A stretch of 64,000 bases of DNA from Struthio camelus (Eukaryota). Every line of letters starts with the position of its first letter. The first letter of the stretch is position 1. This document shows, in pieces, positions 10,512-41,002 of the stretch. The DNA lies in NCBI RefSeq assembly GCF_040807025.1, contig NC_090973.1, forward strand, positions 981,853-1,045,852, in the 5' to 3' direction. A program made the position numbers and the translations under genes. Under the pieces are notes generated by a model, which saw only the letters and a list, made by a program, of their open reading frames with translations, was not told the origin of the DNA and searched no databases.

Positions 10512-10554
10512 CGGCATCTGCCTCCGCACCCGCGTCTTGGGGGGCCCGGGCGGC

Positions 10555-13130
10555 CGGGGGAGGGGACCCAGGTGTCCGGGGAGGGGCCCAGGTGTCCGGG
10601 GAGGGGCCCAGGTGTCCGGGAGGGGCCCAGGTGTCCCGGAGGGAACCAAGCGTCTGTAATGGGCCCAGGTGTCCGGGGAGCGGCCCAGGCGTCCTGGAGG
10701 GACCCAGGTGTCCAGGAAGGGGCCCAGGCGTCCTGGAGGGACCCAGGTGTCCAGGGAGGGGGCCCAGGAGTCCAGGGAGGGGCCCAGGCATCCGGGGAGG
10801 GACCCAGGTGTCCAGGGAGGGGCCCTGGCGTCCGGGAGGGAACCAAGTGTCTGTAATGGGCCCAGCTGTCCGGGGAGGGACCCAGCTGTCCGGGGAGGGA
10901 CCCAGGCGTCTGAGAGGGGCCCAGGCATCCGGGAAGGGCCCAGGTGTCCTGGAAGGACCCAGGCGTCTGGGGAGGGGGCCCAGGAGTCCAGGGAAGGGCA
11001 GAGATGTCCGGAGAGGGGCCCAGGCGTCCCGGAGGGAACCAAGCGTCTGTAATGGGCCCAGGCATCTGGGAGGGACCCAGGTGTCCGGGGGAGGGGCCCA
11101 GGCGTCTGGGAGGGGCCCAGGCGTCCTGGAGGGACCCAGGTGTCCAGGAAGGGGCCCAGGCGTCCTGGAGGGACCCAGGCGTCCTGGAGGGACCCAGGAG
11201 TCCAGGGAGGGGCCCAGGCATCCGGGGAGGGACCCAGGTGTCCAGGGAGGGGCCCTGGCGTCCCGGAGGGAACCAAGTGTCTGTAATGGGCCCAGGTGTC
11301 CGGGGGGACCCAGGTGTCCGGGGAGGGGCCCAGGTGTCCGGGGAGGGGCCCAGGCGTCTGAGAGGGGCCCAGGCGTCCGGGAAGGGCCCAGGTGTCCGGG
11401 GGAGGGGGCCCAGGCGTCCGGGGACGGGGGCCCAAGCGTCCGGGAAGGACCAGGGCATCCGGGGAGGGCCCAGGTGTCCGGGAGGGCCCAGGCGTCCGGG
11501 GAGGAGGCCCAGGAGTCTGGGAAGGACCAGGGCATCCGGGAAGGGGCCCAGGTGTCCCGGAGGGAAGCAAGCGTCTGTAATGGGCCCAGGTGTCCGGGGA
11601 AGGGGCCCAGGTGTCCGGGGAGGGGCCCAGGTGTCCGGGAGGGGCCCAGGTGTCCGGGAGGGAACCAAGCGTCTGTAATGGGCCCAGGTGTCCGGGGAGC
11701 GGCCCAGGCGTCCTGGAGGGACCCAGGTGTCCAGGAAGGGGCCCAGGCGTCCTGGAGGGACCCAGGTGTCCAGGGAGGGGGCCCAGGAGTCCAGGGAGGG
11801 GCCCAGGCATCCGGGGAGGGACCCAGGCATCCGGGGAGGGGCCCTGGCGTCCCGGAGGGAACCAAGTGTCTGTAATGGGCCCAGGTGTCCGGGGAGGGAC
11901 CCAGCTGTCCGGGGAGGGGCCCAGGGGTCCGGGGAGGGGCCCAGGCATCCGGGGAGGGACCCAGGCGTCTGAGAGGGGCCCAGGCATCCGGGAAGGGCCC
12001 AGGTGTCCTGGAAGGACCCAGGCGTCTGGGGAGGGGGCCCAGGAGTCCGGGGAAGGGCAGAGATGTCCGGAGAGGGGCCCAGGCGTCCCAGAGGGAACCA
12101 AGCGTCTGTAATGGGCCCAGGTGTCCGGGGAGGGACCCAGGTGTCCGGGGAGGGGCCCAGGCGTCTGGGGAAGGGCCCAGGGAAGGGCCGAGGTGTCTGG
12201 GGAGGGACCTAGGTGTCTGGGAGGGGCCCTGGCATCCGGGAGGGACCCAGGCGGCTGGGAGGGCCCAGGCATCCGGGGAGGGGTCCAGGTGTCTGGGAGG
12301 GGCCCAGGCGTCCGGGAGGGGCCCAGGTGTCCGGGCAGGAAGGGGCCCAGGAGTCCAGGAGGGCCCAGGTGTTCGGGAGGGCCTAGGTGTCCAGGAAGGG
12401 GCCCAGGCGTCCGGGGAGGGACCGAGGTGTCTGGGGAGGGCCCAGGCATCCGGGGAGGGGCCCAGGCGTCCGGGAAGGACCCAGGTGTCCTGACAAGGAC
12501 CCAGGAGTCCGGGGAGGGGCCCAGGTGTCCGGGAGGGGCCCAGGCGTCCGGGGGGACCCAGGTGTCCGGGGAGGGACCCAGGCATCTGGGGAGGGACCCA
12601 GGAGTTCGGGAGGGGCCCAGGCATCCGGGAGGGGCCCAGGAGTCCAGGGAAGGACCCAGGCATCTGGGAGGGACCCAGGTGTCTGGGAGGGGCCCAGGTG
12701 TCCAGGAGGGGCCCAGGCGTCCGGGAGGGGCCCAGGCATCCAGGGAGGGGCCCAGGCATCCAGGGAGGGGCCCAGGAGTCCAGGGAAGGACCCAGGTGTC
12801 CGGGAGGGGCCCAGGCATCTGGGAGGGACCCAGGTGTCCGGGAGGGGCCCAGGCATCTGGGAGGGACCCAGGCGTCCGGGGAGGGGCCCAGGCGTCCGGG
12901 GAGGGGCCCAGGAGTCCGGGAGGGGCCCAGGAGTCCGGGGAAGGACCCAGGTGTCCGGGAAGGACCCAGGAGTCCGGGAGGGACCCAGGAGTCCGGGGAA
13001 GGACCCAGGCGTCCGGGGAGGGGCCCAGGCGTCCGGGGAGGGGCCCAGGCGTCCGGGGAGGGGCCCAGGTGTCCTGGAGGGCCCAGGCGCCCTGGGGAAG
13101 GGCCCAGGCGTCCGGGGAGCCCCCGGCGAG
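10555..13130. repeat. Intergenic ~21-bp minisatellite (gggacccaggcgtccggggag / ggggcccaggtgtccgggga), >110 copies, punctuated by gggaaccaagcgtctgtaatgggcccagg
   Basis: Direct tandem array with ~1-kb higher-order similarity (ORFs at 10592 and 11590). It is the same family, in inverted orientation, as the array at 1-1000. Confidence 0.95.
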
Positions 13131-13139
13131 CTCTCCCCG

Positions 13140-13260
13140 CCCACTGGCTCGCGCCCCGTGACGTCACGCCCTGCGGGGCGGCCCTCCCGCACGTCACTTC
13201 CGTCCCGCCGGTGGGCGGGGCCGGGGCCGGAAGTGACGCGCGGCGGCGGCGGCGGCCGGG
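13140..13260 (+). promoter_or_regulatory. PPP4C: CpG-island core-promoter module; candidate PPP4C TSS and non-coding exon 1
   Basis: It contains a perfect palindromic CRE TGACGTCA (13159-13166), a half-CRE ACGTCA, an inverted ETS pair CACTTCCG (13195-13202) and CCGGAAGTGACG (13227-13238), and an Sp1 box GGGCGGGGC (13213-13221). A possible donor GG|GTGCGA lies at 13260. It sits 2.6 kb after the ALDOA polyA signal and 2.9 kb before the PPP4C ATG, and a possible acceptor ggggggcag is at 16092-16094. Confidence 0.45.
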
Positions 13261-13269
13261 TGCGACCCG

Positions 13270-15650
13270 CGGCGGGTTCGGGGGTCGCCGGGGGGGTTCG
13301 GGGGGGGCCGGTTGGGGGCCGGTTGGTTTTTGGGGGCGGCTGGGGGGTTCTAGGGGCGGTGTGGGGGGGTTGGGGGGGTAGTTGGGGTGTTGCGGGGGCG
13401 GTTTGGGGGGGGTTGGGGGCAGGTTGGGGGGTTTTGGGGGTGTTTTGGGGGTGTTTGGGGGCAGTTTGGGGGTTTTGGGGGTGTTTGGGGGCAGTTGGGG
13501 GGTAGTTGGGGTGTTGCGGGGGCGGTTTGGGGGGTTTTGGGTACAGGTGGAGGGGGTTGGGGGCGGTTTGGGGGTGTTTGGGGGCAGGTTGGGGGGTTTC
13601 GGGGGTGTTTGGGGGCAGTTGGGGGTTTGGGGGCAGTTTGGGGGGTAGTTGGGGGTAGTTGGGGTGTTGGGGCAGTTTGAGGGGGTTGGGGGCGGTTTCG
13701 GGGTGTTTGGGGACAGGTTGGGTGTTTTGGGGCAGTTCGGGGGTAGTTGGGGTGTTGGGGCGGTTAGGGGGGTTGTTTGGGGGCAGGTTGGGGGGTTTCG
13801 GGGGTGTTTGGGGGCAGTTTGGGGGTAGTTGGGGTGTTGCGGGGGCGGTTTGGGGGGTTTTGGGTACAGGTGGAGGGGGTTGGGGGCGGTTTGGGGGTGT
13901 TTGGGGGCAGGTTGGGGGGTTTTGGGGGTGTTTGGGGGCAGTTGGGGGGTTTTGGGGGTGTTTGGGTGCAGTTGGGGGTTTGGGGGCAGTTTGGGGGGCA
14001 GCTGGGGGTAGTTGGGGTGTTGTGGGGGCAGTTTGAGGGGGTTGGGGGTGGTTTCGGGGTGTTTGGGGACAGGTTGGGTGTTTTGGGGCAGTTCGGGGGT
14101 AGTTGGGGTGTTGGGGCGGTTTGGGGGGTTGTTTGGGGGCAGGTTGGGGGGTTTTGGGGGTCTTTGGGGGTAGTTGGGGTATTGGGGCAGTTTGAGGGGT
14201 TTTGGGGACAGTTTGAGGGGGTTGGGGGTGTTTGGGGGCAGGTTGGGGGTTTTGGGGGGCAGTTGGGGGTAGTTGGGGTGTTGTGGGGGTAGTTTGAGGG
14301 GGTTGGGAGCGGTTTGGGGACAGTTTGGAGGTTTTGGGGGTCTTTGGGGGCAGTTTGGGGGTAGTTGGGGTGTTGTGGGGGCAGTTTGAGGGGGTTAGGA
14401 GCAGTTTGGGGGTGTTTGGGGACAGGTTGGGGGTTTGGGGGTCTTTTGGGACAGTTTGGGGGCAGTTTGGGTTTTGGGGACAGTTTGAGGGGTTTGGGGG
14501 CAGGTTTGGGGTAGTTGGGGTGTTGTGGGGGCAGTTTGGGGGGTTTGGGGACAGTTTGGGGGGTGTTTGGGGGTGGTTTTGGGGGTCTTTGGGGGCAGTT
14601 GGGGTTTTGGGGCAGTTTGGGGGAGTTTGGGACATTTTGGAGGGTCTTTGGGGGCAGTTTGGGGGGCAGTTTGGGGGTAGATGGGGTGTTGGGACGGTTT
14701 GGGGGGGTTGGGGGTGGTTTTGGGGGTGTTGGAGGGTCTTTGGGGGTAGTTTGGAGGGTTTGGGGGCAGTTTGGGGGTAGTTGGGGTGTTGTGGGGGCAG
14801 TTTGGGGGCTTTGGTGACAGTTTGAGGGGGTGGGAGCAGTTTGGGGGGTGTTTGGGGGCGGTTTTGGGGGTCTTTGGAGGCGGTTGAGGTTTTGGGGCAG
14901 TTTGGGGGTTTTGGGACAGTTTGGGGGGGTTTGGAGGCTGTTGGCGTAGGTGACAGTTTGGGGGCAGTTTGGGGACAGCTGGGGGGATATTTGGGGGCAG
15001 TTTGAGGGATTTTGGGGGCCACTTGCGGTTTGGGGGCAGTTTGGGGCAGTTTGAGGGGTTTCGGGGGGCGGTTTGAGGGGTTTGGGGAGACTTGAAGGGA
15101 TTCAGGGGCTGTTGGGGGAGTTTGGGGGAGCCGGAGGGATTTCGGGGGCAGTTGGGAGGGTTTTGGCTCCGTTGGCGAGGGGGGTGGGCAGGTTTGGGGG
15201 GGACGTTTTGGATTTGGGGGGCAATTGAGGGGATTTAGGGGACAGTTGGGGGGAGTTGGGGGGGCAATGGGGGCCCGTTGGGATGTTTTGCAGAGCGCTG
15301 GCGCGATTTGGGGTCAGGCTGGGGGTTTTTTTTGGGAGCGGTGGGGGGGGGTCACTTTGGGGGTCTTTAGGGGCACTTGGGGATTTTTGGGTCACTTTGG
15401 GGGTCGTCGGGGGGTCGGGGGGGCCGTTGGGGCCTTGGGGGGGGCATTTGGGGGTCGTCGGGGGGTTGGGGGGGCCGTTGGGGCCTTGGGGGGGCATTTG
15501 GGGGTCGTCGGGGGGTTGGGGGGGCCGTTGGGGCCTGGGGGGGCATTTGGGGGGTGCAAGCGGAGTTGGGGGGGTCTGGGGGCAATTGAAGGCAACGGAG
15601 GGGCAGTTCAGGGGGGGCTGGGGGGGGCTTTTGGGGGGGTGGAGGGCAAC
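13270..15650. repeat. G-rich minisatellite ggggg(c)ag(t)ttggggg(g)t(g)tttgggg (~20-bp units; G4T4-like)
   Basis: It fills the putative PPP4C intron 1 and has very high G-quadruplex potential on the + strand. It grades into the CAATTAG field at its 3' end. Confidence 0.95.
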
Positions 15651-15954
15651 TGAGGGGTCCGGGGAGCGATTAGGGGCTCGGGGGGGGTAATTAGGGGCTG
15701 TTGGGGGCACTTGGGGGTGTCGGGGGCAGTTAGGGGCTTGAGGGGGGGCTGTTAGGGGCATTTGGGGGGCAATTGGGGGTGCTGGGGGGCAGTTAGGGCA
15801 TTGGGGGGGCTATTGAGCAGGTAGGGAGTCGGGGGGCAATTAGGGGTGGGGGGCAACGAGGAGGGGGGCTGTGGTGTCCGGGGGGGGCAATTAGGGGTTG
15901 TGGGGGGGGTTAATTAGCCCTGATGGGGGGGGCAATTACCGTCCCCCCCCCAAG

Positions 15955-15975
15955 TGGCCATTTCACGTCACCTGG
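15955..15975 (+). promoter_or_regulatory. PPP4C: CRE-like TCACGTCA plus GGCCATTTC (YY1-like) motif ~130 bp upstream of the PPP4C ATG
   Basis: aagtggccatttcacgtcacctgggattgacgagcc. This is an alternative or proximal promoter element if the ATG exon is the first exon. Confidence 0.3.
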
Positions 15976-16099
15976 GATTGACGAGCCAGCACCGATGGGG
16001 GGGGGACGAGCCTAGCTGCCGTTGGGGAAAAGGGGGCAAAATTAAGTCATGGGGGTAATTAGGGGGGGCTAATTAACAGTTAATTAGGGGGGCAGGGCC

Positions 16100-16197
16100 A
16101 TGGGGGAGCCGAGCGACCTGGACCGGCAGATCGAGCAGCTGCGGCGCTGCGAGCTCATCAAGGAGAGCGAGGTGAAGGCCCTCTGCGCCAAGGCCAG
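16100..16197 (+). CDS. PPP4C: Serine/threonine-protein phosphatase 4 catalytic subunit, coding exon 1 (start codon)
   Basis: Encodes [32 protein letters not shown](R), which I recognise as the PPP4C N-terminus (human [33 protein letters not shown]). gtaccc donor at 16198. Confidence 0.92.
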
Positions 16198-16319
16198 GTA
16201 CCCCGGGGGGGGGGGCAATTAACCCCCGCACGGGGGTAATTAACCCCCACCGGGCTCGTTAGCCCCTCGGCGGGGCAATTAACCCGCCGGCGGGCCGCTG
16301 ACGAAGGGCCGTCCCGCAG

Positions 16320-16371
16320 GGAGATCCTGGTGGAGGAGAGCAACGTGCAGCGGGTGGACTCGCCCGTGACG
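16320..16371 (+). CDS. PPP4C: PPP4C coding exon 2
   Basis: cag acceptor 16317-16319. Encodes (R)EILVEESNVQRVDSPVT. gtgagc donor 16372. Confidence 0.9.
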
Positions 16372-16488
16372 GTGAGCGGGGCGATTAGCGGGGCTAATTA
16401 GGCCTCGGAGGGGGTAATTAGGGCTTGGAGGGGGTAATTAGGGGGCGGATTTGCCCCCCTCACCCCCCCGTTTTGCCCCCCCGCCCAG

Positions 16489-16539
16489 GTGTGCGGCGAC
16501 ATCCATGGGCAGTTTTACGACCTCAAGGAGCTCTTCCGG
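16489..16539 (+). CDS. PPP4C: PPP4C coding exon 3
   Basis: cag acceptor 16486-16488. Encodes [17 protein letters not shown]. gtgagt donor 16540. Confidence 0.9.
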
Positions 16540-16544
16540 GTGAG

Positions 16545-17832
16545 TCGCCCTGCTAATTGCCCCCCGCCCCGACTTAATTACCCCCCAGTAGACCCCCCCA
16601 CGCTTAGTTAGTCCTATCGGTGTTTAATTACCCTTTTTCAGTAGCCGATTATCTCTGATTGTTTGTTATCTGCTTAATTAGTGCCTGATGTGCGATTATC
16701 ACTCCGCTTTTTAACTCTTCTCGCTTAATTACCCCCTTAATTGACCTCCCTTTTTAATTGCACCCCCTTAATTGCCCCCAGTTCAGGCTTGACTGCCCCC
16801 CAACCGCTCATTGCCCCCCCTAATTGCTGCCCTGGTTGCTAATTATTCCCATGGTTGTTAATTGCCCCCCAGGCTATTTGTCCCTGTTGTTGTTTCTTAT
16901 CTTTAGTTGTTCCTGTTAATTATCTTTTCTGGGCTTAATTGCCCCCCCCCACTGCTAATTGCTCTCTGATTATGAGTTATTTATGTGGTCCTCAATTAGC
17001 CCTGGCTCCTAATTGCTCCTTTGCCTCGTTAGTTTGCTAGTTTGAGGCCTAATTGCCCCTAATGGCTGCCTAATTGCCCCTGCTAATTGCCCCACAAGCC
17101 CTAGTTGCCTCTGTAGTTGCCCCTGATTACGTGTTAATTGCTCTTCTCAGTCCCTAATTGCTCCCCTGGGTTTCCCCCACCCACTCCTAATTGCTCTAGA
17201 GCCCCTAATTGCCCCCCCCCATGCCCAACAGCCCCCCCCCAAATTGCCCCCCCAGCCTTGAATTGCCCCTTCAGCACCTTTTTGGCTCCCCTGGAGCTAA
17301 TTATCTCCCTAATTGCCCCATCACTAATTGCCCCTCCCAGCCGCAAATAGCTTCCCCGATTATCTCTCAGTTGCTAATTATCCTCTTAATTGCCTCCCCC
17401 AGCCCCTACTTGCCCCCGCTAGCCCTAATTGCCCCCCCCAACTCCTCCCAGGCCCTAATTACTCCCTTAATTGCCCCCCGGTCCCAAATATCCCCCCGAA
17501 TTGCCCCCGAGCTCCTAGCTGCTCCTTTCAGCCTTTTTTGCCCCCGTAATTGCCCCGTAGCCCTTAATTACTGTCTTAATTACCCCCCCCGGCCCCTAAC
17601 TGCTTCCCTTAGACCTATTTGCTGCTGTAATTGCCCCGTAGCTGCTAATCACCCCCTTAATTACCCCCCCCAGCCCCAGACAGCTTTCCCTAATTATTAA
17701 TTAGGTGTTTTGTTTGCTTGGGGTGGGGGGGGGGGCTTGGTAGCTTCCTTAATTGCTCTGTGGGCCGTAATTACCTGCCTAATTGCTCTGCTCAGTCCCT
17801 AATTGCTTTCCTCCCTAATTACCCCCCCCCCG
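16545..17832. repeat. C-strand (inverted) version of the same motif field: ~50 copies of (c)ctaattgcccc / cttaattacccc in PPP4C intron 3
   Basis: cccctaattgcccc is the reverse complement of ggggcaattagggg. Orientation flips at ~16455-16470, just upstream of exon 3. The region is relatively AT-rich. Confidence 0.85.
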
Positions 17833-17835
17833 CAG

Positions 17836-17937
17836 GTGGGGGGTGACGTCCCCGAGACCAACTACCTGTTCATGGGCGACTTCGTGGACCGGGGCTTCTA
17901 CAGCGTCGAGACCTTCCTGCTGCTCCTCGCCCTCAAG
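17836..17937 (+). CDS. PPP4C: PPP4C coding exon 4
   Basis: cag acceptor 17833-17835. Encodes [34 protein letters not shown] (metallophosphatase GDxVDRG motif). GT donor 17938. Confidence 0.92.
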
Positions 17938-17939
17938 GT

Positions 17940-18330
17940 GGGGCCCAGGCGTCCGGGAGGGATGAGGAGGGACCCAGGTGTCCGGGCCGGGGGGGGGGAC
18001 AGGAGGGTAGGAAAGAGGGGCCCAGGTGTCCGGGAGGAGCCAGGCCCCTTTGTGTGCAAACCAAATGTCTGGTGGGGGGGGGGGAGGGTGTCTGGAGCAA
18101 GAAGGGGCCCAGGCGTCCGGGGAGGGACCCAGGCGTCCTGGTGACATTCAAGCGTCTGGAGTGAGAAGGGATCCAGGCATCCGGGGAGGGGTCCCAGGTG
18201 TCCGGGGTTGGGGGACGGGGACCCAAGTGTCCAGGAGGCTTCCAGGTGCCTGGGACCAGAGGGGACCCAGGCGTCCGGGGCGGGGGGGAAGGACCCAGGC
18301 GTCCGGGAGGACCCAGACGTGCGGGCGCCG
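17940..18330. repeat. Block of the gggacccaggcgtccggg(ga) minisatellite family inside PPP4C intron 4
   Basis: It has the same unit as 10555-13130 and about 12 copies. Confidence 0.85.
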
Positions 18331-18333
18331 CAG

Positions 18334-18507
18334 GTGCGCTACCCCGACCGCATCACGCTGATCCGGGGCAACCACGAGAGCCGGCAGATCACGCAGGTCT
18401 ACGGCTTCTACGACGAGTGCCTGCGCAAGTACGGCTCCGTCACCGTCTGGCGCTACTGCACCGAGATCTTCGACTACCTCAGCCTCTCCGCCATCATCGA
18501 CGGCAAG
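18334..18507 (+). CDS. PPP4C: PPP4C coding exon 5
   Basis: cag acceptor 18331-18333. Encodes [58 protein letters not shown] (GNHE motif). gtgagc donor 18508. Confidence 0.92.
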
Positions 18508-18529: not shown

Positions 18530-20750
18530 CGGGTAGCCCCGCGGCGCTCCTGCGGGGTGGCTGTGCTGCACACGCTAAGCACACGCTAAGAACATGCATG
18601 TTGTGTCGCACGTTCTGCTCACCCGGGACCTCCCTGTGTCCATCCGTGCTGCCCCAGGGTGCTTGGGTAGCCCCGCGGCGCTCCTGCGGGGTGGCTATGC
18701 CGCACACGCTAAGCACACGCTAAGCACATGGGTGTCGCACGCTGTGCTGTGCTCACCCGGGACCTGCCCGTGTCCCTCCGTGCTGCCCCAGGGTGCTTGG
18801 GTAGCCCCGTGGCGCTCCTGCGGGGTGGCTATGCCGCACACGCTAAGCACACGCTAAGCACATGGGTGTCGCACGCTGTGCTGTGCTCACCTGGGACCTC
18901 CCTGTGTCCCTCCGTGCTGCCCCAGGGTGCTTGGGTAGCCCCGCGGCGCTCCTGCGGGGTGGCTGTGCCGCACACGCTAAGCACACGCTAAGCACATGGG
19001 TGTCGCACGCTGTGCTGTGCTCACCTGGGACCTGCCCGTGTCCATCCGTGCTGCCCCAGGGTGCTTGGGTAGCCCCGCAGCGCTCCTGCGGGGTGGCTGT
19101 GCTGCACATGCTAAGCACACACTAAAAACATGCATGTTGTGTCGCACGTTCTGCTCACCTGGGACCTGCCCATGTCCATCCGTGCTGCCCCAGGGTGCTT
19201 GGGTAGCCCCGCGGCGCTCCTGCGGGGTGGCTGTGCCGCACACGCTAAGCACACACTAAGCACATGGGTGTCGCACACTGTGCTGTGCTCACCCGGGACC
19301 TGCCCGTGTCCATCCGTGCTGCCCCAGGGTGCTTGGGTAGCCCCGCGGCGCTCCTGTGGGGGGGGCTGTGCCGCACACGCTAAGCACACGCTAAAAACAT
19401 GCATGTTGTGTTGCACGTTCTGCTCACCCGGGACCTGCCCGTGTCCCTCCGTGCTGCCCCAGGGTGCTTGGGTAGCCCCGTGGCGCTCCTGCGGGGTGGC
19501 TATGCCGCACACGCTAAGCACACGCTAAGCACATGGGTGTCGCACGCTGTGCTGTGCTCACCCGGGACCTGCCCGTGTCCCTCCGTGCTGCCCCAGGGTG
19601 CTTGGGTAGCACCGCGGCGCTCCTGCGGGGTGGCTGTGCCGCACACGCTAAGCACACGCTAAAAACATGCATGTTGTGTCGCACGTTCTGCTCACCCGGG
19701 ACCTGCCCGTGTCCCTCCGTGCTGCCCCAGGGTGCTTGGGTAGCCCCGTGGCGCTCCTGTGGGGGGGCTGTGCCGCACACGCTAAGCACACGCTAAAAAC
19801 ATGCATGTTGTGTCGCACGTTCTGCTCACCCGGGACCTGCCCGTGTCCCTCCGTGCTGCCCCAGGGTGCTTGGGTAGCCCCGCGGCGCTCCTGCGGGGTG
19901 GCTGTGCCGCACACGCTAAGCACACGCTAAGCACATGGGTGTCGCACGCTGTGCTGTGCTCACCCGGGACCTCCCTGTGTCCATCCGTGCTGCCCCAGGA
20001 TGCTTGGGTAGCCCCGTGGCGCTCCTGCGGGGTGGCTATGCCGCACACGCTAAGCACACGCTAAGCACATGGGTGTCGCACGCTGTGCTGTGCTCACCTG
20101 GGACCTGCCTGTGTCCATCCGTGCTGCCCCAGGGTGCTTGGGTAGCCCCGCGGCGCTCCTGCGGGGTGGCTGTGCCGCACACGCTAAGCACACGCTAAGC
20201 ACATGGGTGTCGCACGCTGTGCTGTGCTCACCTGGGACCTGCCCGTGTCCATCCGTGCTGCCCCAGGGTGCTTGGGTAGCCCCGCAGCGCTCCTGCGGGG
20301 TGGCTGTGCCGCACATGCTAAGCACACGCTAAAAACATGCATGTTGTGTTGCACGTTCTGCTCACCCGGGACCTGCCCGTGTCCCTCCGTGCTGCCCCAG
20401 GGTGCTTGGGTAGCCCCGTGGCGCTCCTGTGGGGTGGCTATGCCGCACACGCTAAGCACACGCTAAGCACATGGGTGTCGCACGCTGTGCTGTGCTCACC
20501 CGGGACCTGCCCGTGTCCATCCGTGCTGCCCCAGGGTGCTTGGGTAGCCCCGTGGCGCTCCTGTGGGGTGGCTATGCCGCACACGCTAAGCACACGCTAA
20601 GCACATGGGTGTCGCACGCTGTGCTGTGCTCACCCGGGACCTGCCCGTGTCCATCCGTGCTGCCCCAGGGTGCTTGGGTAGCCCCGCGGCGCTCCTGCGG
20701 GGGGGCTGTGCCGCACACGCTAAGCACACGCTAAGCACACGCATGTTAGG
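18530..20750. repeat. 134-bp tandem repeat x~16.5 in PPP4C intron 5
   Basis: Identical 87-aa ORFs recur every 134 bp on both strands. The unit ...gcacacgctaagcacatgggtgtcgcacgctgtgctgtgctcacccgggacctg... resembles the acceptor/exon-6 start cacgctaagcacacgcgtgtgccgtgcagATTTTCTGCGTGCACGGGGGCCTG. Confidence 0.95.
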
Positions 20751-21032: not shown

Positions 21033-21159
21033 ATTTTCTGCGTGCACGGGGGCCTGTCGCCCTCCATCCAGACGCTGGACCAGATCCGCACCATCGACCG
21101 CAAGCAGGAGGTGCCCCACGACGGCCCCATGTGCGACCTGCTCTGGTCCGACCCCGAAG
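21033..21159 (+). CDS. PPP4C: PPP4C coding exon 6
   Basis: cag acceptor 21030-21032. Encodes [42 protein letters not shown](G). gtaggc donor 21160. Confidence 0.92.
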
Positions 21160-22404: not shown

Positions 22405-22594
22405 ACACCACGGGCTGGGGCGTGTCCCCGCGCGGCGCCGGCTACCTCTTCGGCAGCGACGTGGTGGCCCAGTTCAACGCGGCCAACGACATCGACATGA
22501 TCTGCCGGGCCCACCAGCTCGTCATGGAGGGCTACAAGTGGCACTTCGGCGAGACCGTCCTCACCGTCTGGTCCGCCCCCAACTACTGCTACCG
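22405..22594 (+). CDS. PPP4C: PPP4C coding exon 7
   Basis: cag acceptor 22402-22404. Encodes (D)[62 protein letters not shown](R). gtgagg donor 22595. Confidence 0.92.
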
Positions 22595-26112: not shown

Positions 26113-26242
26113 GTGTGGCAACGTGGCGGCCATCTTGGAGCTGGACGAGCACCTGCAGAAGGAGTTCATCATCTTCGAGGCGGCGCCGCAGGAGACCCGC
26201 GGCATCCCCTCCAAGAAGCCCGTGGCCGACTACTTCCTGTGA
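26113..26242 (+). CDS. PPP4C: PPP4C terminal coding exon (stop TGA 26240-26242)
   Basis: cag acceptor 26110-26112. Encodes (R)[42 protein letters not shown]. The 8 exons sum to 924 nt, giving 307 aa as expected for PPP4C. Confidence 0.92.
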
Positions 26243-28899: not shown

Positions 28900-30050
28900 C
28901 GGTTGAGGGGGCTGGGGGCGGCCATGGGGGTAGTTGTGGGGCGGTGGGGGCAAATGTGAGGCAGTGGGGGCAATTTGGGGGCAGTTGTGGGGCTGGGGGG
29001 GCAGTTGAGGGGGCAGTTGAGGGGGCTGGGGGATGATTGGGGGCAGTTGGAGCAGTTGTGGGGCAGTGGGGGCAGTTGAGGGGGCAGTTGAGGGGGCAGT
29101 TGTGGGGCTGGGGGATGATTGGGGCAGTTGGGGCAGTGGGGGCAGTTGAGGGGGCAGTTGTGGGGCTGGGGGATGGTTGGGGCAGTTGTGGGGCAGTGGG
29201 GGCAGTTGAGGGGGCATTTGTGGGGCTGGGGGATGATTGGGGGCAGTTGTGGGGCAGTGGGGGCAGTTGAGGGGGCATTTGTGGGGCTGGGGGATGATTG
29301 GGGGCAGTTGTGGGGCAGTGGGGGCAGTTGAGGGGGCAGTTGTGGGGCTGGGGGATAATTAGGGGGAAGTTGAGGCAGTTGTGGGGCAGTGGAGGCAGTT
29401 GAGGGGGCAGTTGTGCTGGGGGATGATTAGGGGGCAGTTGCAGTTGTGGGGCTGGGGGGCAGTTGAGGGGACAGTTGTGGGGCTGGGGGATGATTGGGAG
29501 CAGTTGGGGCAGTTGTGGGGCTGGGGAGGCAGTTGAGGGGGCAGTTGGGCTGGAGAATGACTAAGGGGCCGTTGTGGGGCTGGGGGGCAGTTGAGGGGGT
29601 AGTTGTGGGGCTGAGGGATGATTGGAGGAATTGGGGCAGTTGTGGGGCTGGGGGGCAGTTGGGGTGGGGGGCAGAAGTGGGGGCAGCGATGGGGCTGGGG
29701 CGGTAGTTGGGAGGCAGGTGCGGGGCCGTTGTGGGGCTGGGGAGCAGGTGTGGGGCAGTTGGGCTGGGGGATGATTGGGGGCAGTTGTGGGGCTGGGGGG
29801 CAGTTGGTGTGGAGGGGCAGAGGTGGGGGCAGCGGTGGGCCTGGGGCGGCAGTTGGGGGGCAGGTATGGGGCAGTAGGAGCAATTGGGGGCAGTTAAAGG
29901 GGGCAGATGTGGGGGCAGTTGGGAGTGGGGGCAGTTGGGGGCGGGGGTGGGAGAGGGGAGCTGGGGGCAGTTGTTGGGGGGCAGTTGGGCTGCAGGTACA
30001 TTGGGGGGGTATTTTGGGGTCGGGGGGCTGTAGGAGTCTAGGAGGGCCCA
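28900..30050. repeat. G-rich minisatellite ggggcagttgagggggcagttgtggggctgggggatgattgg (~60-bp unit)
   Basis: It belongs to the same ggggcagtt(g)gggg family as 13270-15650. Confidence 0.9.
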
Positions 30051-35926: not shown

Positions 35927-36378
35927 GCAGTTCGGCGACCGGCGGCCCAGAGCGCAGGCTGGGCCGCCAGGGCACCCAGGAGCTGGACGGCTCGTCCCGG
36001 CGGCCGCCTGAGCAGGATGAGGCCGCCTCGCAGCACGCCCTGGGGCAGCCCGCGGCGCCCCGCGCCCAGCCGGCGCCGCCGCCGGCCCCCCCCGCCGCCG
36101 CCCCCCCCCTGCCGCCGCGCCCCGAGGTGACGGCCGCCCCCCCGGGCGGCGGGGGCGGCGCGTTGCGCCCCTCGCCCTCTCCCCCGCCGCCCCCACCCCC
36201 CAGCGCCCCCGGCAGCGAGCCCGTGTCGCCCGCCTCGGCCGGCTCGCCCGCTTCCGGCGCCGCCGCCGGCGGCTCGCCCCCCGCCAACGCCCGCCTCGAC
36301 GCCGCCGCCGCCGCCCCCCCGGACCCCCCCAGCCTCTGGGACAAGACCCACGCCGAGATCGCCGAGCAGGCCAAGCAC
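35927..36378 (+). CDS. SRCAP: SRCAP N-terminal coding exon ending ...SLWDKTHAEIAEQAKH
   Basis: ttctgcag acceptor 35921-35926. The frame reads ...SEPVSPASAGSPASGAAAGGSPP...DPPSLWDKTHAEIAEQAKH, matching human SRCAP ...SNPVSPASSSSPASSGAGGISPQ...KSHAEIAEQAKH. gtgagt donor 36379. There is no in-frame ATG in this exon. Confidence 0.8.
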
Positions 36379-39300
36379 GTGAGTGCAGGCGGGGAGGTGT
36401 TTTGGGGCAAATTGGGGTGGTTTTGGGGCCCGCTTGAGAATCAAACCCGTGCTGAGATCGCTGAGCACGTGTGTGTGGGGTCAGAGCAGTGTTTTGGGGT
36501 GGTTTTGGGTCCCTCTTGAGAATCAAACCCACGCTGAGGTCTCTCAGCACGTGTGTGTGGGGTCAGAGCAGTGTTTTGGGGCGAATCAGGGTGGTTTTGG
36601 GTCCCTCTCGACAATTGGAACCCACGCCAAGATCGCCGAGGAGGCCAAGGCCGTGAGTGCAGGCGGGGAGGCGTTTTGGGGTGAATCGGGGCGGTTTTGG
36701 GTCCCGTTTGAGAATCAAAACCCACGCCAAGATCGCTGAGGAGGCCAAGGATGTGAGTGTAGGTGGGGAGGTGTTTTGGGGCAATTTGAGGCGGTTTTGG
36801 GGCCCGCTTGAGAATCAAACCCGTGCTGAGATCGCTGAGCACGTGTGTGTGGGGTCAGAGCAGTGTTTTGGGGTGATTTGGGGTGGTTTTGGGGCCCGCT
36901 TGAGAATCAAATCCGTGCTGAGGTCTCTCAGCACGTGTGTGTGGGGTCAGAGAAGTGTTTTGGGGCGAATCAGGGTGGTTTTGGGTCCCTCTCGACAATT
37001 GTAACCCACGCCGAGATCGCCGAGCAGGCCAAGCACGTGAGTGCAGGTGGGGAGGTGTTTTGGGGCAAATTGGGGTGGTTTTGGGGCCCGCTTGAGAATC
37101 AAACCCGTGCTGAGATCGCTGAGCACGTGTGTGTGGGGTCAGAGCAGTGTTTTGGGGTGATTTGGGGTGGTTTTGGGTCCCTCTTGAGAATCAAACCCAC
37201 GCTGAGGTCTCTCAGCACGTGTGTGTGGGGTCAGAGCAGTGTTTTGGGGCGAATCAGGGTGGTTTTGGGTCCCTCTCGACAATTGGAACCCACGCCAAGA
37301 TCGCCGAGGAGGCCAAGGCCGTGAGTGCAGGCGGGGAGGCGTTTTGGGGTGAATCGGGGCGGTTTTGGGTCCCGTTTGAGAATCAAAACCCACGCCAAGA
37401 TCGCTGAGGAGGCCAAGGATGTGAGTGTAGGTGGGGAGGTGTTTTGGGGCAATTTGAGGCGGTTTTGGGGCCCACTTGAGAATCAAACCCGTGCTGAGAT
37501 CGCTGAGCACGTGTGTGTGGGGTCAGAGCAGTGTTTTGGGGTGATTTGGGGTGGTTTTGGGTCCCTCTCGATAAGTGGAACCCACGCCGAGATCGCCGAG
37601 GAGGCCAAGGACGTGAGTGCAGGTGGGGAGGCGTTTTGGGGCGATTCGGGGCGGTTTTGGGTCCCGCTTGAGAATCAAAACCCACGCCGAGATCGCCGAG
37701 GAGGCCAAGGATGTGAGTGTAGGCGGGGAGGTGTTTTGGGGCAATTTGAGGCGGTTTTGGGTCCCGCTTGAGAATCAAACCTATGCTGAGATCTCTGAGC
37801 CCGTGCGTGTGGGGACGCAGAAGTGTTTTGGGGCGATTTGGGGCGGTTTTGGGTCCCTCTCGATAGTTGGAACCCACGCCGAGATCGCCGAGGAGGCCAA
37901 GGACGTGAGTGCAGGTGGGGAGGCGTTTTGGGGCGATTCGGGGCGGTTTTGGGTCCTGCTTGAGAATCAAACCTATGCTGAGATCTCTGAGCCCGTGCGT
38001 GTGGGGTCAGAGCAGTGCTTTGGGGCGAATCGGGGCGGTTTTGGCTTTCTCTTGAGAATCAAAACCCACGCCAAGATCGCTGAGGAGGCCAAGGACGTGA
38101 GTGCAGGCAGGGAGGCGTTTTGGGGCAATTTGGGGCGGTTTTGGGTCCCACTGGAGGATTAAACCTGTGCTGGCATCACTGAGCCCATGTGTGTGGGGAC
38201 GGAGAAGCGTTTTAGGGTGCTTTGGGGCGGTTTTGGGTCCCACTCGAGAATCAAACCCGTGCTGAGGTTGCTGAGCACGTGTGTGTGGGGTCAGAGCAGT
38301 GTTTTGGGGTGATTTGGGGTGGTTTTGGGTCCCTCTCAAGAACCAAAACCCGTGCTGAGATCGCCGAGGAGGCCAAGGACGTGAGTGCAGGCGGGGAGGA
38401 GTTTTGGGGCAATTTGAGGCGGTTTTGGGTCCCACTCGATGCTCAAACCCACGCTGAGATCCCTGAGCATATGCGTGTGGGGACGCAGAAGTGTTTTGGG
38501 GCGAATCGGGGCGGTTTCGGGTCCCTCTCGATAATTGGAACCCTCGCCGAGCAGGCCGAGGACGAGAGTGCGGGCAGGGAGGCGTTTTGGGGCGAATCGG
38601 GGCGGTTTCAGGTCCCTCTTGATAATTGAAGCCCGTGCTGAGATGGCCGAGCATGTGTGTGTGGGCTCAGAGCAGTGTTTTGGGGCGAATTGGGGCGGTT
38701 TTGGGTCCTTCTTGATGATCAGAACCCGCTCAGGTATCGCCGAGCAGGCCAAGCACATGAGCGCAGGCAGGGAGGTGTTTTGGGGTGAATCGGGGCGGTT
38801 TTGGGTCCCTCTCAATAATTGAATCACGTGCTGAGATCGCTGAGCACAAGCACGTGGGGTCGGAGAAGTGTTTTGGGGCGATTTGGGGTGGTTTTGGGTT
38901 CCTCTCCAGAATCAAAACCCATGCCGGGATCGCCGAGCAAGCCGAGCGCACGCGTCTGGGGTCAGAGCAGTGTTTTGGGGTGAATCAGGGTGATTTTGGG
39001 TCCCTCTCGATAATTGAAGCCCGTGCCGAGATTGGTGAGCCCCTGCGTGTGGGGTCAGAGCAGTGTTTTGGGGCGAATCGGGGTGGTTTTGGGTTTCTCT
39101 TGGGAATCAAAGCCTGCGCTGAGATCGCTGAGGAGGCCAAGGACGTGAGTGCAGGCGGGGAGGCGATTTGGGGTGAATCAGGACAGTTTTGGGTCCCTCT
39201 CGAGAACCCAAACTCACACCAAGATTGGTGAGCCCGTGCGTGTGGGCTCAGAGCAGTGTTTTGGGGCGAATCGGGGCAGTTTTGGGTCGCTCTCGAGAAC

Positions 39301-40300
39301 CCAAACTCCTGCCAAGATCGCTGAGCCTGTGCGTGTGGGGTCAGAGCAGTGTTTTGGGGCGAATCGGGGTGGTTTTGGGTTTCTCTTGAGAATCAAAACG
39401 TGCGCCGAGATCGCTGAGGAGGCCAAGGACGTGAGTGCAGGCGGGGAGGTGTTTTGGGGTGATTTGAGGTGGTTTTGGGTCCCTCTCGATGATCCAAACC
39501 CGCGCCGAGGTCACTGAGCAGACCAAGCATGAGTGCTGATGGGGAGGTGATTTGGGGTGATTTGGGACGATTTTGGGTCCTTCTTAAGAATCAAAACCCA
39601 CGCTGAGATCTCTGAGCCCGTGCGTGTGGGGTCAGAGCAGTGTTTTGGGGCGAATTGGGGTGGTTTTGGGTTTCTCTTGAGAATCAAAACGTGCGCGGAG
39701 ATCCCTGAGGAGTCCAAGCATGTGAGCGCAGGTGGGGAGATGTTTTGGGGTGAATCGGGGTGGTTTTGGGTTTCTCTCAAGAACCAAAACCCACACCAAG
39801 ATTGCTGAGGAGGCCAAGCGTGTGGATGCAGGCAGGGAGGCGTTTTGGGGCAAATTGAGGCAGTTTTTGGTCCCTCTCGAGAACCCAAACTCCCACCAAG
39901 GTCGCCGAGCCCGTGCGTGTGGGGTCAGAGCAGTGTTTTGGGGCGAATCGGGGCGGTTTTGGGTTTCTCTTGGGAATCAAAAACCCGCGTGGACATCGTT
40001 GAGGAGGCCAAGGATGTGAGTGCAGGCGGGGAGGCGATTTGGGGCGAATCAGGACAGTTTTGGGCCCCTCTCGAGAACCCAAACTCACACCAAGATCGCT
40101 GAGCCCGTGCGTGTGGGCTCAGAGCAGTGTTTTGGGGCGAATCGGGGTGGTTTTGGGTTTCTCTTGGGAATCAAAGCCTGCGCTGAGATCGCTGAGGAGG
40201 CCAAGGACGTGAGTGCAGGCAGGGAGGTGTTTTGGGGTGAATCGAGGTGGTTTTGGGTCCCTCTCGAGAACCCAAACTCCCGCCAAGGTCGCCGAGCCCG
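36379..40300. repeat. ~140-bp tandem repeat (x~28) derived from the SRCAP exon-B 3' end plus splice donor
   Basis: Each unit carries a copy of acccacgccgagatcgccgagcaggccaagcacGTGAGTGCAGGcggggagg. An exact 44-nt copy including the GT donor lies at 37004-37047. Diverged copies are at 36610-36665, 36728-36770, 37298, 37386, 37575, 37690, 37880, 38075, 38350 and others. Repeat ORFs encode THAKIAEEAKD, versus real THAEIAEQAKH. Confidence 0.9.
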
Positions 40301-41002
40301 TGCGTGTGGGCTCAGGGCAGTGTTCTGGGGCGAATCGGGGCGGTTTCGGGTCTGCCGCGGAGCCCGGCGACCGCCGAGGGCAGCCCGAAGCGTGGCGACG
40401 CCGGGAGGCGTCTCGCGGCGCTTCGGCCCTTCTCCCCTTGCGGCCGGAGCCGAGCTCCCCGGCGGGGGGGGAGGGGGGGGGACGTGCAGCTTTTGGGGTG
40501 AATCGAGGTGGTTTTGGGTCCCTCTTGATAATCGGGCCGCGTTGAGATCGCTGAGCCCGTGCGTGTGGGGTCAGAGCAGTGTTTTGGGGTGATTCGAGGT
40601 GGTTTTGGGTCCCTCTCGAGAACCAAAACCTGTGCTGAGATCGCCGAGGAGGCCAAGGACGTGAGTGCAGGCGGGGAGGTGATTTGGGGCGAATCGAGGT
40701 GGTTTTGGGTCCCTCTCGAGAACTCAAACTCACACCAAGATTGGTGAGCCCGTGCGTGTGGGCTCAGGGCAGTGTTCTGGGGCGAATCGGGGCGGTTTCG
40801 GGTCCGCCGCGGAGCCCGGCGACCGCCGAGGGCAGCCCGAAGCGTGGCGACGCCGGGAGGCGTCTCGCGGCGCTTCGGCCCTTCTCCCCTTGCGGCCGGA
40901 GCCGAGCTCCCCGGGCGGGCGGGCGAGCGGGCGACGGGGCCGGTTTTGGGGGCGAAGCCGGGCGGTTTCGGGCCCGCCGCGACGCCTCGCCTGGCCGGGC
41001 AG

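Follow-up and report, generated by a model that had tools for sequence, protein, structure and literature searches.

The dense field of TAATTA and TAATTG cores at the 5′ end of PPP4C in Struthio camelus is real, and it is one degenerate minisatellite family, with a unit of ~20 bp, that fills the 5′-UTR intron and introns 1–3 of the gene. Very probably, it is a further, ordinary case of a class already described: the introns of avian dot-chromosome genes that are filled with repeats (“stuttering”). An initial annotation had offered two readings of the field, a decayed inverted minisatellite or a dense homeobox-type binding platform. The first is borne out by reverse-complementary consensus units, by the spacing of the cores, and by 203 imperfect inverted pairs between the G-rich and C-rich halves. 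The second finds no support: the core is not preferentially conserved, it is lost in the penguin arrays, and passerine intron 3 has been replaced.

The repeat family and its place in PPP4C

In the whole 64-kb stretch of DNA that was analysed (the window), where GC content runs from 0.56 to 0.78 and tandem repeats make up 72% of the sequence, AATT occurs 101 times. Sixty-two of these copies lie within 15650–17832, for which local dinucleotide-preserving shuffles gave 9.9 ± 2.7 (maximum 19). YAATTR occurs 72 times window-wide against an expectation of 10.2 ± 2.7, a count reached in 0 of 100 shuffles. Within 15650–17832 there are 58 exact YAATTR sites, together with 23 one-mismatch relatives that adjoin a G or C run; thus, the more than 70 copies first claimed hold under this relaxed definition. 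The description of the core as the only AT-containing motif class is approximately right in this interval, where AATT, TAAT, ATTA and TTAA make up 181 of the 236 W-only 4-mers, but it fails window-wide, since 39 AATT copies lie elsewhere, with clusters at 36–40 kb and around 56 kb.

The gene is indeed PPP4C: by tblastn and spliced translation, eight coding exons join to encode a 307-aa protein identical to the ostrich and kiwi PPP4C entries. A promoter island with CRE, ETS and Sp1 motifs lies 2.9 kb upstream. Its CCGGAAGTGACG element is invariant across three palaeognaths, a penguin, two passerines, alligator and snake, and GGTGCGA follows in the window, in the two other palaeognath loci (L001 and L002) and in alligator. 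From the position of this conserved promoter, the field is taken to lie entirely within introns, occupying the 5′-UTR intron and introns 1–3. A non-coding exon probably precedes the ATG exon, so that coding exons 1–3 would be exons 2–4 of the gene. The features, in window coordinates, are these:

13140–13259, + strand: promoter island of PPP4C with its putative first, non-coding exon, containing TGACGTCA, CTTCCG, GGGCGGGG and CCGGAAGTGACGCG; predicted exon end
13260–13261, + strand: putative donor GT of non-coding exon 1
13329–15163, + strand: GGGGCAGTTT / 20-bp G-strand minisatellite of the distal 5′-UTR intron (TRF period 10/20/21, ~91 copies, 64% matches)
15164–15649, + strand: transitional G-strand sub-arrays with CATTTG, CACTTG and CCGTTG cores; 50-bp higher-order unit at 15370–15553
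15650–15948, + strand: G-orientation CAATTA/TAATTA/CAATTG units (GGGGGGCAATTAGGGGCTGTT; TRF periods 21/20/61)
15949–16035, + strand: short non-repeat island in the 5′-UTR intron (GGCCATTTC...), with counterparts in L001 and L002
16036–16095, + strand: four AATT cores, of which three are TAATTA, before the ATG exon, 14–55 nt from the putative acceptor AG (16094–16095)
16100–16197, + strand: coding exon 1 (tblastn, spliced translation)
16198–16319, + strand: intron 1; three near-palindromic hybrids GGGG-[CT]AATTA-ACCCC, period ~20, also in L001 and L002
16320–16371, + strand: coding exon 2 (tblastn, spliced translation)
16372–16488, + strand: intron 2, with G-orientation units GGGGGTAATTAGGGCTCGGA at 16390–16443 (2.7 copies, 91% matches)
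16451–16488, + strand: C-rich pyrimidine tract closing intron 2, the “flip” immediately before exon 3
16489–16539, + strand: coding exon 3 (tblastn, spliced translation)
16540–17835, + strand: intron 3; C-orientation units (CAGCCCCTAATTGCCCCCC) with 46 AATT cores in all
17836–17937, + strand: coding exon 4 (tblastn, spliced translation)

The units on the G side and in intron 3 are one 19- to 21-bp unit (GGGGGCAATTAGGGGCTG) on opposite strands. The TRF consensus sequences, GGGGGGCAATTAGGGGCTGTT on the G side and TAATTGCCCCCCCCAGCCCC in intron 3, are reverse complements over the full unit, spacer included, and the spacing between cores has modes at 12 and 19–21 bp, both in the window and in L001 and L002. 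TRF finds arrays of period 19–21 at 15661–15810, 16212–16294, 16390–16443, 16820–16869 and 17387–17440; at scores of at least 50, it covers only 25% of the interval 15650–17832. Thus, the array is decayed, and the case for its tandem nature draws partly on unit scans and spacing. In the C-orientation units of intron 3, decay is mostly C>T, and the terminal unit extends into the acceptor of exon 4.

The strand pattern first described, G-strand ahead of and within introns 1 and 2 and C-strand throughout intron 3, stands in most of the field. Upstream of the ATG and in intron 2 the units read GGGG-[CT]AATTA-GGGG, and in intron 3 they read CC[CT]TAATT[GA]CCCC, the reverse complement. The pattern does not extend to intron 1, whose hybrid units have their G run to the left and their C run to the right (GGGGCAATTAACCCCC), and it is broken by a C-run patch at 15940–15950 and by a G-run patch at 17712–17732 within intron 3. 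The flip does fall just 5′ of exon 3, at the pyrimidine tract of 16451–16488. The proposed grading out of the GGGGCAGTTT array is also roughly right: G-run-anchored cores pass from CAGTTT/TAGTTG (13.3–15.3 kb) through CATTTG/CACTTG (15.3–15.7 kb) to CAATTA/CAATTG/CAGTTA (15.7–16.1 kb). The minisatellite at 13329–15163, with its CAGTTT/TAGTTG cores, is the parent family of the TAATTA/TAATTG field.

The locus in other birds and reptiles

The layout of the field is the same in L001 and L002. Intron 3 has turned over quickly: among the three palaeognaths it is only 64–72% identical, with whole-unit indels and lengths of 1296, 1291 and 865 nt; third codon positions are 94–95% identical. The distance from promoter to ATG varies across species from 0.96 to 2.9 kb, and the span of PPP4C in passerines from 2.4 to 33 kb. 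The penguin keeps the arrays and the flip with other cores, CAGTTA on the G side and CTAACTG/CTAAGTG in intron 3, so one variant occupies both orientations within a lineage. These CAGTTA/CTAACTG cores belong to the arrays of its 5′-UTR intron and intron 3, and its intron 2 has other G-run units. Passerine intron 3 holds different repeats instead, (GAGTGACCCCT)n and (CTCACCTGTCY)n. Snake PPP4C has no field, only short, unique introns, and shows a clear acceptor that precedes its ATG by 11 nt; in alligator, where the assembly has a gap at the locus, the assembled parts contain no field.

Two positions are more constant. TAATTA stands at the start of intron 1, where it coincides with a splice signal, in all birds sampled (15 bird loci read); in Neoaves this intron begins G|GTAATTA and continues with TAATTA units. 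By the acceptor of the ATG exon, multiple TAATTA copies, again coincident with a splice signal, occur in nearly all of the 15 loci, most having two to four within 60 nt 5′ of the ATG, and only variants (GATTA/TTAAT) are found before the ATG in Sula (L017). The loci read cover more than 100 My of bird phylogeny. The persistence of TAATTA at these two sites is greater than pure neutral turnover would lead one to expect and could reflect selection, on splice signals (the reading favored here) or on something else. The initial annotation had named as adverse outcomes the absence of the field from orthologous loci and the alignment of its units as simple slippage products lacking TAATT conservation. 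In fact the palaeognaths carry the field, but the units do behave as whole-unit slippage products, and across birds TAATT is specifically conserved only beside the two splice sites.

Class membership and competing explanations

Zebra finch dot-chromosome introns are >70% tandem repeat, with units that are typically multiples of 10–11 bp; dot-chromosome introns carry G4 motifs on the coding strand, and in bird dot chromosomes such motifs, often unmethylated, are enriched both there and at 5′ ends (bioRxiv 10.1101/2025.10.17.683159). The copying of splice-site-adjacent sequence through introns has been called “sequence stuttering”, and chicken PPP4C (chr38) has a panel in the supplement of that study (PMC12954441, 2026). 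Dot-chromosome placement of PPP4C is taken here from this chicken orthologue and from the GC content of 0.56–0.78.

It is instructive to set the field beside both descriptions. As in sequence stuttering, imperfect tandem expansions, here in period 19–21 arrays with spacing modes of 12 and 19–21 bp, occupy the introns of a GC-rich gene of the dot chromosomes, lying between the conserved promoter with putative exon 1 (13140–13259) and coding exon 4. Intron length varies as well, here as between-species differences only. The arrays also abut or include splice-site sequence. In Neoaves, the first TAATTA of intron 1 belongs to its donor, G|GTAATTA; in the window, as in L001 and L002, the final unit of intron 3 makes up the acceptor region of exon 4. 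Descent may have run in either direction, from splice site to unit or the reverse. However, the field is old and decayed (25% TRF coverage at scores of at least 50), it is one family in both orientations across three exons, and its unit and orientation are common to three palaeognaths and, with the core changed, to the penguin, whereas PMC12954441 stresses independent recent expansions. With the dot-chromosome minisatellites of bioRxiv 10.1101/2025.10.17.683159, it shares units of 10/12/20/21 bp, coding-strand G runs of at least 4 in the 5′ introns, and a tandem-repeat content of 72% in the window against >70% in zebra finch introns. Unlike them, it has a C-rich coding strand in intron 3 and an AT-only core (TAATT).

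A homotypic cluster of homeodomain sites that would serve PPP4C as an enhancer platform, whether intronic or promoter-proximal, is barely credible. It would explain why 58 exact YAATTR sites, far beyond chance, crowd into 2.2 kb and why most bird loci read have TAATTA near the ATG and in intron 1, and a high density of the canonical TAAT core is what enhancer clusters of this kind have. But tandem copying accounts for the multiplicity, and the copies, in contrast to such clusters, are tandem units with fixed G- or C-run flanks and ~20-bp phasing. Per-position matches within units revealed no core-specific constraint, AATT being no better conserved than the G and C runs and less so on the G side. 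With symmetric unit detection, match rates in intron 3 were 0.87–0.98 at AATT positions and 0.73–1.00 in the 3′ C run; on the G side, the 5′ G run matched at 0.85–1.00 and two core A positions at 0.61–0.72 and 0.46–0.58. The core is retained in two palaeognaths only 5–6% diverged at third codon positions but not in the penguin, whose 5′-UTR-intron and intron-3 arrays, built on CAGTTA/CTAACTG, have no TAAT core; unrelated repeats occupy passerine intron 3, and the field is missing from snake and from the assembled parts of alligator. Moreover, the conserved promoter is the CRE/ETS/Sp1 island 2.9 kb upstream, and PPP4C is a broadly expressed housekeeping phosphatase. On these comparisons, the field probably lacks homeodomain function. 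A role in GC skew is less remote, although still distinctly unlikely. Over the ~3 kb that follow the TSS, a G-rich non-template strand would favor R-loops or G-quadruplexes and keep the 5′ end open and unmethylated, the TAATT cores serving as mere G4 loop sequence. Immediately beyond the conserved promoter, over 13–16 kb, the skew is +0.58 to +0.82; it is negative in intron 3, and the often unmethylated G4 motifs of dot-chromosome 5′ ends and intron coding strands (bioRxiv 10.1101/2025.10.17.683159) fit such a role. Yet many other arrays in the window have strong G skew regardless of gene 5′ ends, and skew covers the G runs but neither the TAATT core nor intron 3.

The inverted halves raise the matter of structure. 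By pairing in the pre-mRNA or as a DNA cruciform, they might loop out exon 3 or exons 1–3, an arrangement that would favor exon skipping, back-splicing (circRNA) or fragility. Intronic complementary sequences that drive back-splicing, such as inverted Alu pairs, likewise place reverse-complementary repeats on either side of exons. In keeping with this, 203 inverted pairs span the halves, G units of intron 2 pair with C units of intron 3 around exon 3 in the minimum-free-energy RNA fold, and the opposite orientation of the flanks is preserved in three palaeognaths and the penguin. The stability of that fold is nevertheless no greater than that of dinucleotide shuffles: for 16372–16660 (intron 2–exon 3–intron 3), it is −115.4 against −107.1 ± 5.3 kcal/mol (z −1.56), and 12 of 200 shuffles did as well. 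The best arms, at 27–47 nt, are short and imperfect (70–89% complementary) beside inverted Alu pairs, and any G-rich and C-rich pair would behave alike. Skipping of the 51-nt exon 3 would delete the conserved GDIHG motif of PPP-family phosphatases. A structural element is very unlikely, and the earlier description of the locus as hairpin-prone around exon 3 holds only weakly. Finally, there is next to no chance that the field is an assembly or sequencing artefact of a hard GC-rich region. PacBio coverage is reduced in such regions, and misassembly is frequent there (bioRxiv 10.1101/2025.10.17.683159), and assembly gaps fall exactly at this locus in alligator and Sula; but the independent assemblies of L001 and L002 agree on unit, layout and orientation, and exons and splice sites are intact.

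Proposed origin and the link to splice signals

The minisatellite family has a unit made up of a G run, CA[A/G]TT[A/G], a second G run and a CTG spacer. The TAATTA/TAATTG cores are probably copies by descent from a single unit variant: one G-to-A change separates CAATTA from the neighbouring CAGTTA, and slippage, unequal exchange or gene conversion may have spread the CAATTA variant, so that its copies are probably not independently maintained protein-binding sites. The reverse-complement array of intron 3 probably stems from an ancient inverted duplication or a template switch, and its orientation may be tolerated or constrained by splicing. The TAATTA core is palindromic, and some units are hybrids that join a G run, TAATTA and a C run.

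In RNA, the C-orientation unit reads CUAAU, UGCCCCCC and CAG, that is, a branch-point-like motif, a pyrimidine tract and an AG, and the AATT cores at 16036–16095 are branch-point-like YTAAY motifs. A more speculative scheme, which we consider unlikely, takes the TAATTA copies common to birds to be splice signals that were amplified, and the palaeognath field to be the outcome of their spread as modules. The signals would be the intron-1 donor G|GTAATTA and the branch-point-like YTAAT with pyrimidine tract that precedes the ATG exon as well as exon 4. Selection on the splicing of repeat-filled introns would fix orientation, allowing G-run units after donors and CUAAU-pyrimidine-CAG units before acceptors, and within a lineage both strands would retain one core variant through gene conversion between inverted arrays (CAATTA in palaeognaths, CAGTTA in the penguin).

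The final intron-3 unit is the real exon-4 acceptor region. In introns other than intron 3, the turn to C-rich sequence comes only just before the acceptor. The exception is intron 4, which is G-rich right up to its acceptor, counter to a general splice-signal reading.

Gene model and motif field at the 5′ end of PPP4C

The window covers a vertebrate locus of very high GC content, in which PPP4C exons were placed by tblastn with PPP4C and manual splicing. All eight coding exons have GT-AG borders, and the spliced product of 307 aa is identical to the ostrich and kiwi NCBI PPP4C entries, which makes the source palaeognath.

Promoter, coding exons and repeat units of PPP4C (window coordinates)
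13140-13259: unique promoter island with CRE (TGACGTCA), ETS (CTTCCG, CCGGAAGT) and GC-box motifs, and with GGGCGGGG and CCGGAAGTGACGCG
16100-16197: coding exon 1
16320-16371: coding exon 2
16489-16539: coding exon 3
17836-17937: coding exon 4
18334-18507: coding exon 5
21033-21159: coding exon 6
22405-22594: coding exon 7
26113-26241: coding exon 8
5′ of the ATG and intron 2: G-run-flanked units, GGGG-[CT]AATTA-GGGG
Intron 1: hybrid units, GGGG-CAATTA-ACCCC
16540-17835, intron 3: 46 cores in C orientation, CC[CT]TAATT[GA]CCCC

Within the promoter island, the string CCGGAAGTGACG does not vary between birds and snake, and the motif CCGGAAGTGACGCG is unchanged in three palaeognaths, a penguin, two passerines, alligator and snake. 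Among bird loci read, this motif is 0.96-6.6 kb upstream of the ATG, and snake PPP4C has a clear acceptor 11 nt 5′ of its ATG. From these two observations we infer that exon 1 is probably non-coding, ending at ∼13259, and that a 5′UTR intron would run from 13260 to 16095. Under this model, the entire motif field would be intronic and outside the promoter. Two Logan matches (P0006, P0012) were rejected as a source for the bird 5′UTR, since they carry the mammalian-type N-terminus MAEISDL and C-terminal fusions. A by-product is a model of the palaeognath PPP4C gene that includes the conserved promoter and a putative 5′UTR intron.

The field of TAATTA/TAATTG cores (YAATTR) around exons 1-3 is real. 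The interval 15650-17832 holds 62 AATT tetramers (the window has 101 in all), against 9.9±2.7 expected from local dinucleotide shuffles, and the whole window has 72 YAATTR where 10.2±2.7 are expected. The interval contains 58 exact YAATTR and 23 one-mismatch relatives adjoining G/C runs. The orientation pattern described in the initial annotation was borne out, with GGGG-flanked units 5′ of the ATG and in intron 2 and CCCC-flanked units in intron 3. So was the gradation from the GGGGCAGTTT array, along which cores pass from CAGTTT/TAGTTG via CATTTG/CACTTG to CAATTG/CAGTTA/CAATTA. A G-run patch, ggggtgggggggggggc, sits at 17712-17732 within the otherwise C-oriented intron 3 and is missing at the aligned positions of two other palaeognath loci (L001, L002).

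Repeat structure and age of the field

Tandem Repeats Finder (TRF) detects arrays of period 19-21 across the whole interval, and in the window, L001 and L002 alike, neighboring cores lie most often 12 or 19-21 bp apart. The G-side consensus GGGGGGCAATTAGGGGCTGTT and the intron-3 consensus TAATTGCCCCCCCCAGCCCC are reverse complements along their entire length, CTG/CAG spacer included. Thus, intron 3 carries the inverted form of the G-side minisatellite. Tandem repeats make up 72% of the 64-kb window (TRF), and the motif field is its most decayed array, with TRF coverage of just 25% at score 50 or above. Together, these observations support the proposal that the field is a decayed inverted minisatellite.

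Other arrays lie nearby. A further G-strand array of the GGGGCAGTTG family, at 29080-29799, lies ∼3 kb past the PPP4C stop codon, so the parent unit type is not limited to the 5′ end of the gene. A (GGGGCCCAGGCGTCCGGGA)n family occurs 5′ of the promoter in the window (10541-13119), L001 (from 11853), L002 (from 11444) and a penguin, L015 (from 7240), and recurs in intron 4 from the donor on (window 17938-18333) in all four. The intron 5 array (18531-20739; a 134-bp unit, 16.5 copies, 90% matches) is young and homogeneous, unlike the decayed TAATT field.

Orthologous loci were obtained from look-ups of the identical protein and cluster relatives. L001 and L002 have the same three-part layout, with 63 and 49 AATT from exon 1 to exon 4. 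We considered and rejected this conservation as a sign of function: palaeognath third codon positions are 94-95% identical, so that neutral sequence would persist, whereas intron-3 arrays are 64-72% identical, with whole-unit indels. The arrays therefore evolve far faster than synonymous sites, and the shared layout of the three palaeognaths means little. In the penguin, the 5′UTR intron holds a G-strand array with CAGTTA cores, intron 2 is G-rich, and intron 3 is C-strand with CTAACTG/CTAAGTG cores. This layout places the array and its flip before the palaeognath–neognath split, and these cores indicate that TAATT is not characteristic of either. A single repeat family, oriented in the same way around exons 1-3, is thus older than that split, despite fast sequence turnover. 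Within each lineage one core variant occupies both orientations, which suggests that the inverted arrays exchange sequence.

Snake PPP4C introns are short and unique, and the motif was not found in the assembled segments of an alligator locus (L013), which is gapped over the 5′ introns. L013, L014 and Sula (L017) have such gaps and give partial information only. The gaps at L013 5196-5613 and 5845-5929 and at L017 3846-5362 and 6413-6949 coincide exactly with the PPP4C 5′UTR intron and introns 1-3, which suggests hard-to-sequence repeats there too.

Homeobox-type and hairpin readings

The same field had alternatively been read as a homeobox-type binding platform. Constraint was assessed on units detected with mismatches allowed symmetrically, to avoid favoring any position. 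Agreement with the consensus in intron 3 is 0.87-0.98 at the AATT positions and 0.73-1.00 along the 3′ C-run. Units on the G side preserve their 5′ G-run (0.85-1.00) better than core A3 (0.61-0.72) and A6 (0.46-0.58), and the penguin cores in the 5′UTR intron and intron 3 are not TAATT. A binding platform is therefore not supported. The commonest change in window intron 3 is C>T (48 of 105), and the AT core's apparent persistence in decayed units would be the expected outcome of a GC-to-AT mutation bias. Special hairpin-proneness around exon 3, which had been attached to the minisatellite reading, fared no better. There are 203 inverted pairs, and in the RNA fold of intron 2, exon 3 and the start of intron 3 the G units pair with C units. 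However, the arms are short and imperfect (≤47 nt, 70-89% complementary), and the fold of this segment is not better than shuffles (−115.4 vs −107.1±5.3 kcal/mol, z −1.56). What stands is a decayed inverted minisatellite, and a caution follows for similar loci: nearly all non-coding DNA in bird dot-chromosome genes is tandem repeat, and a high density of transcription-factor cores can simply be the unit of a minisatellite.

Splice signals and intronic stuttering

All but one of the 12 Neoaves loci read start intron 1 with G|GTAATTA and continue in TAATTA units of 10-11 bp period. The exception, L005, starts GTAACGAG and continues in CCCCTAATGAG units; palaeognath intron 1 consists of GGGGCAATTAACCCCC units. 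Most birds read have two to four TAATTA ≤60 nt 5′ of the ATG, with only GATTA/TTAAT variants in Sula. The persistent TAATTA positions coincide with the intron-1 donor and the branch-point window of the ATG-exon acceptor, and YTAAY matches the vertebrate branch-point consensus, yUnAy. The last intron-3 unit is the actual acceptor region: CCCTAATTACCCCCCCCCCGCAG|G in the window, TCTCTAATTGCCCCCGCAG|G in L001 and CCCAATTGCCCCCCAG|G in L002. C-richness of acceptor-adjacent arrays fails as a general rule, since intron 4 stays G-rich as far as its acceptor.

Intronic instability in dot-chromosome genes has been named "sequence stuttering," in which donor- or acceptor-adjacent sequence is copied through introns; chicken PPP4C (chr38:1990507-2022945) has its own supplement panel (PMC12954441, 2026). 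Given this copying and the TAATTA at splice signals, we propose that the persistent copies may be splice-signal-linked seeds. According to a 2026 preprint (bioRxiv 10.1101/2025.10.17.683159), tandem repeats account for >70% of dot-chromosome intron sequence in zebra finch, chiefly as minisatellites whose unit lengths are multiples of 10-11 bp, and in birds generally G4 motifs are over-represented on the intron coding strand. The motif field fits this known class of intronic repeats. Its added interest is modest: the orientation pattern is old, core variants agree between the two strands, and repeats coincide with splice signals. Repeats that start or end exactly at splice signals bear on how repeat-filled introns stay spliceable.

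In passerines, intron 3 has been replaced by (GAGTGACCCCT)n from the donor and (CTCACCTGTCY)n up to the acceptor. Both arrays look seeded by sequence close to the splice sites.

Passerine intron-3 arrays (donor GTGAGTGACC, acceptor CTCACCTGTCCCCAG|GTGGG)
L008, 14450-15232
L011, 10600-10975

Partial exon copies also occur. In six passerine loci (L003-L007, L010), exon 5 recurs within PPP4C introns as 7-14 partial copies in tandem (aa 101-124, ∼165-bp period); the 5′ portion of exon 6 and pieces of exon 7 are likewise partially copied in tandem (for example, L003 21135-23602, 26047-31150 and 37440-40097). These tandem copies are exon stuttering. In the ostrich window, 36342-40352 holds units of ∼100/192 bp in tandem (∼40 and ∼21 copies), each with a mini-exon-like piece between an acceptor and a GTGAGT donor (...ctctcgAG|AATCAAAACCCACGCCGAGATCGCTGAGGAGGCCAAGGAT|GTGAGT, reading frame KTHAEIAEEAKD); this array may be exon stuttering in a neighboring gene. 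Among passerines, the PPP4C span is 2.4-2.7 kb in L011 (10001-12701; chromosome-level assembly) and L012 (10001-12435; older scaffold-level assembly), 11 kb in L008 and L009, and 23-33 kb in L003-L007 (L003, 10001-43035), a >10-fold difference within one order.
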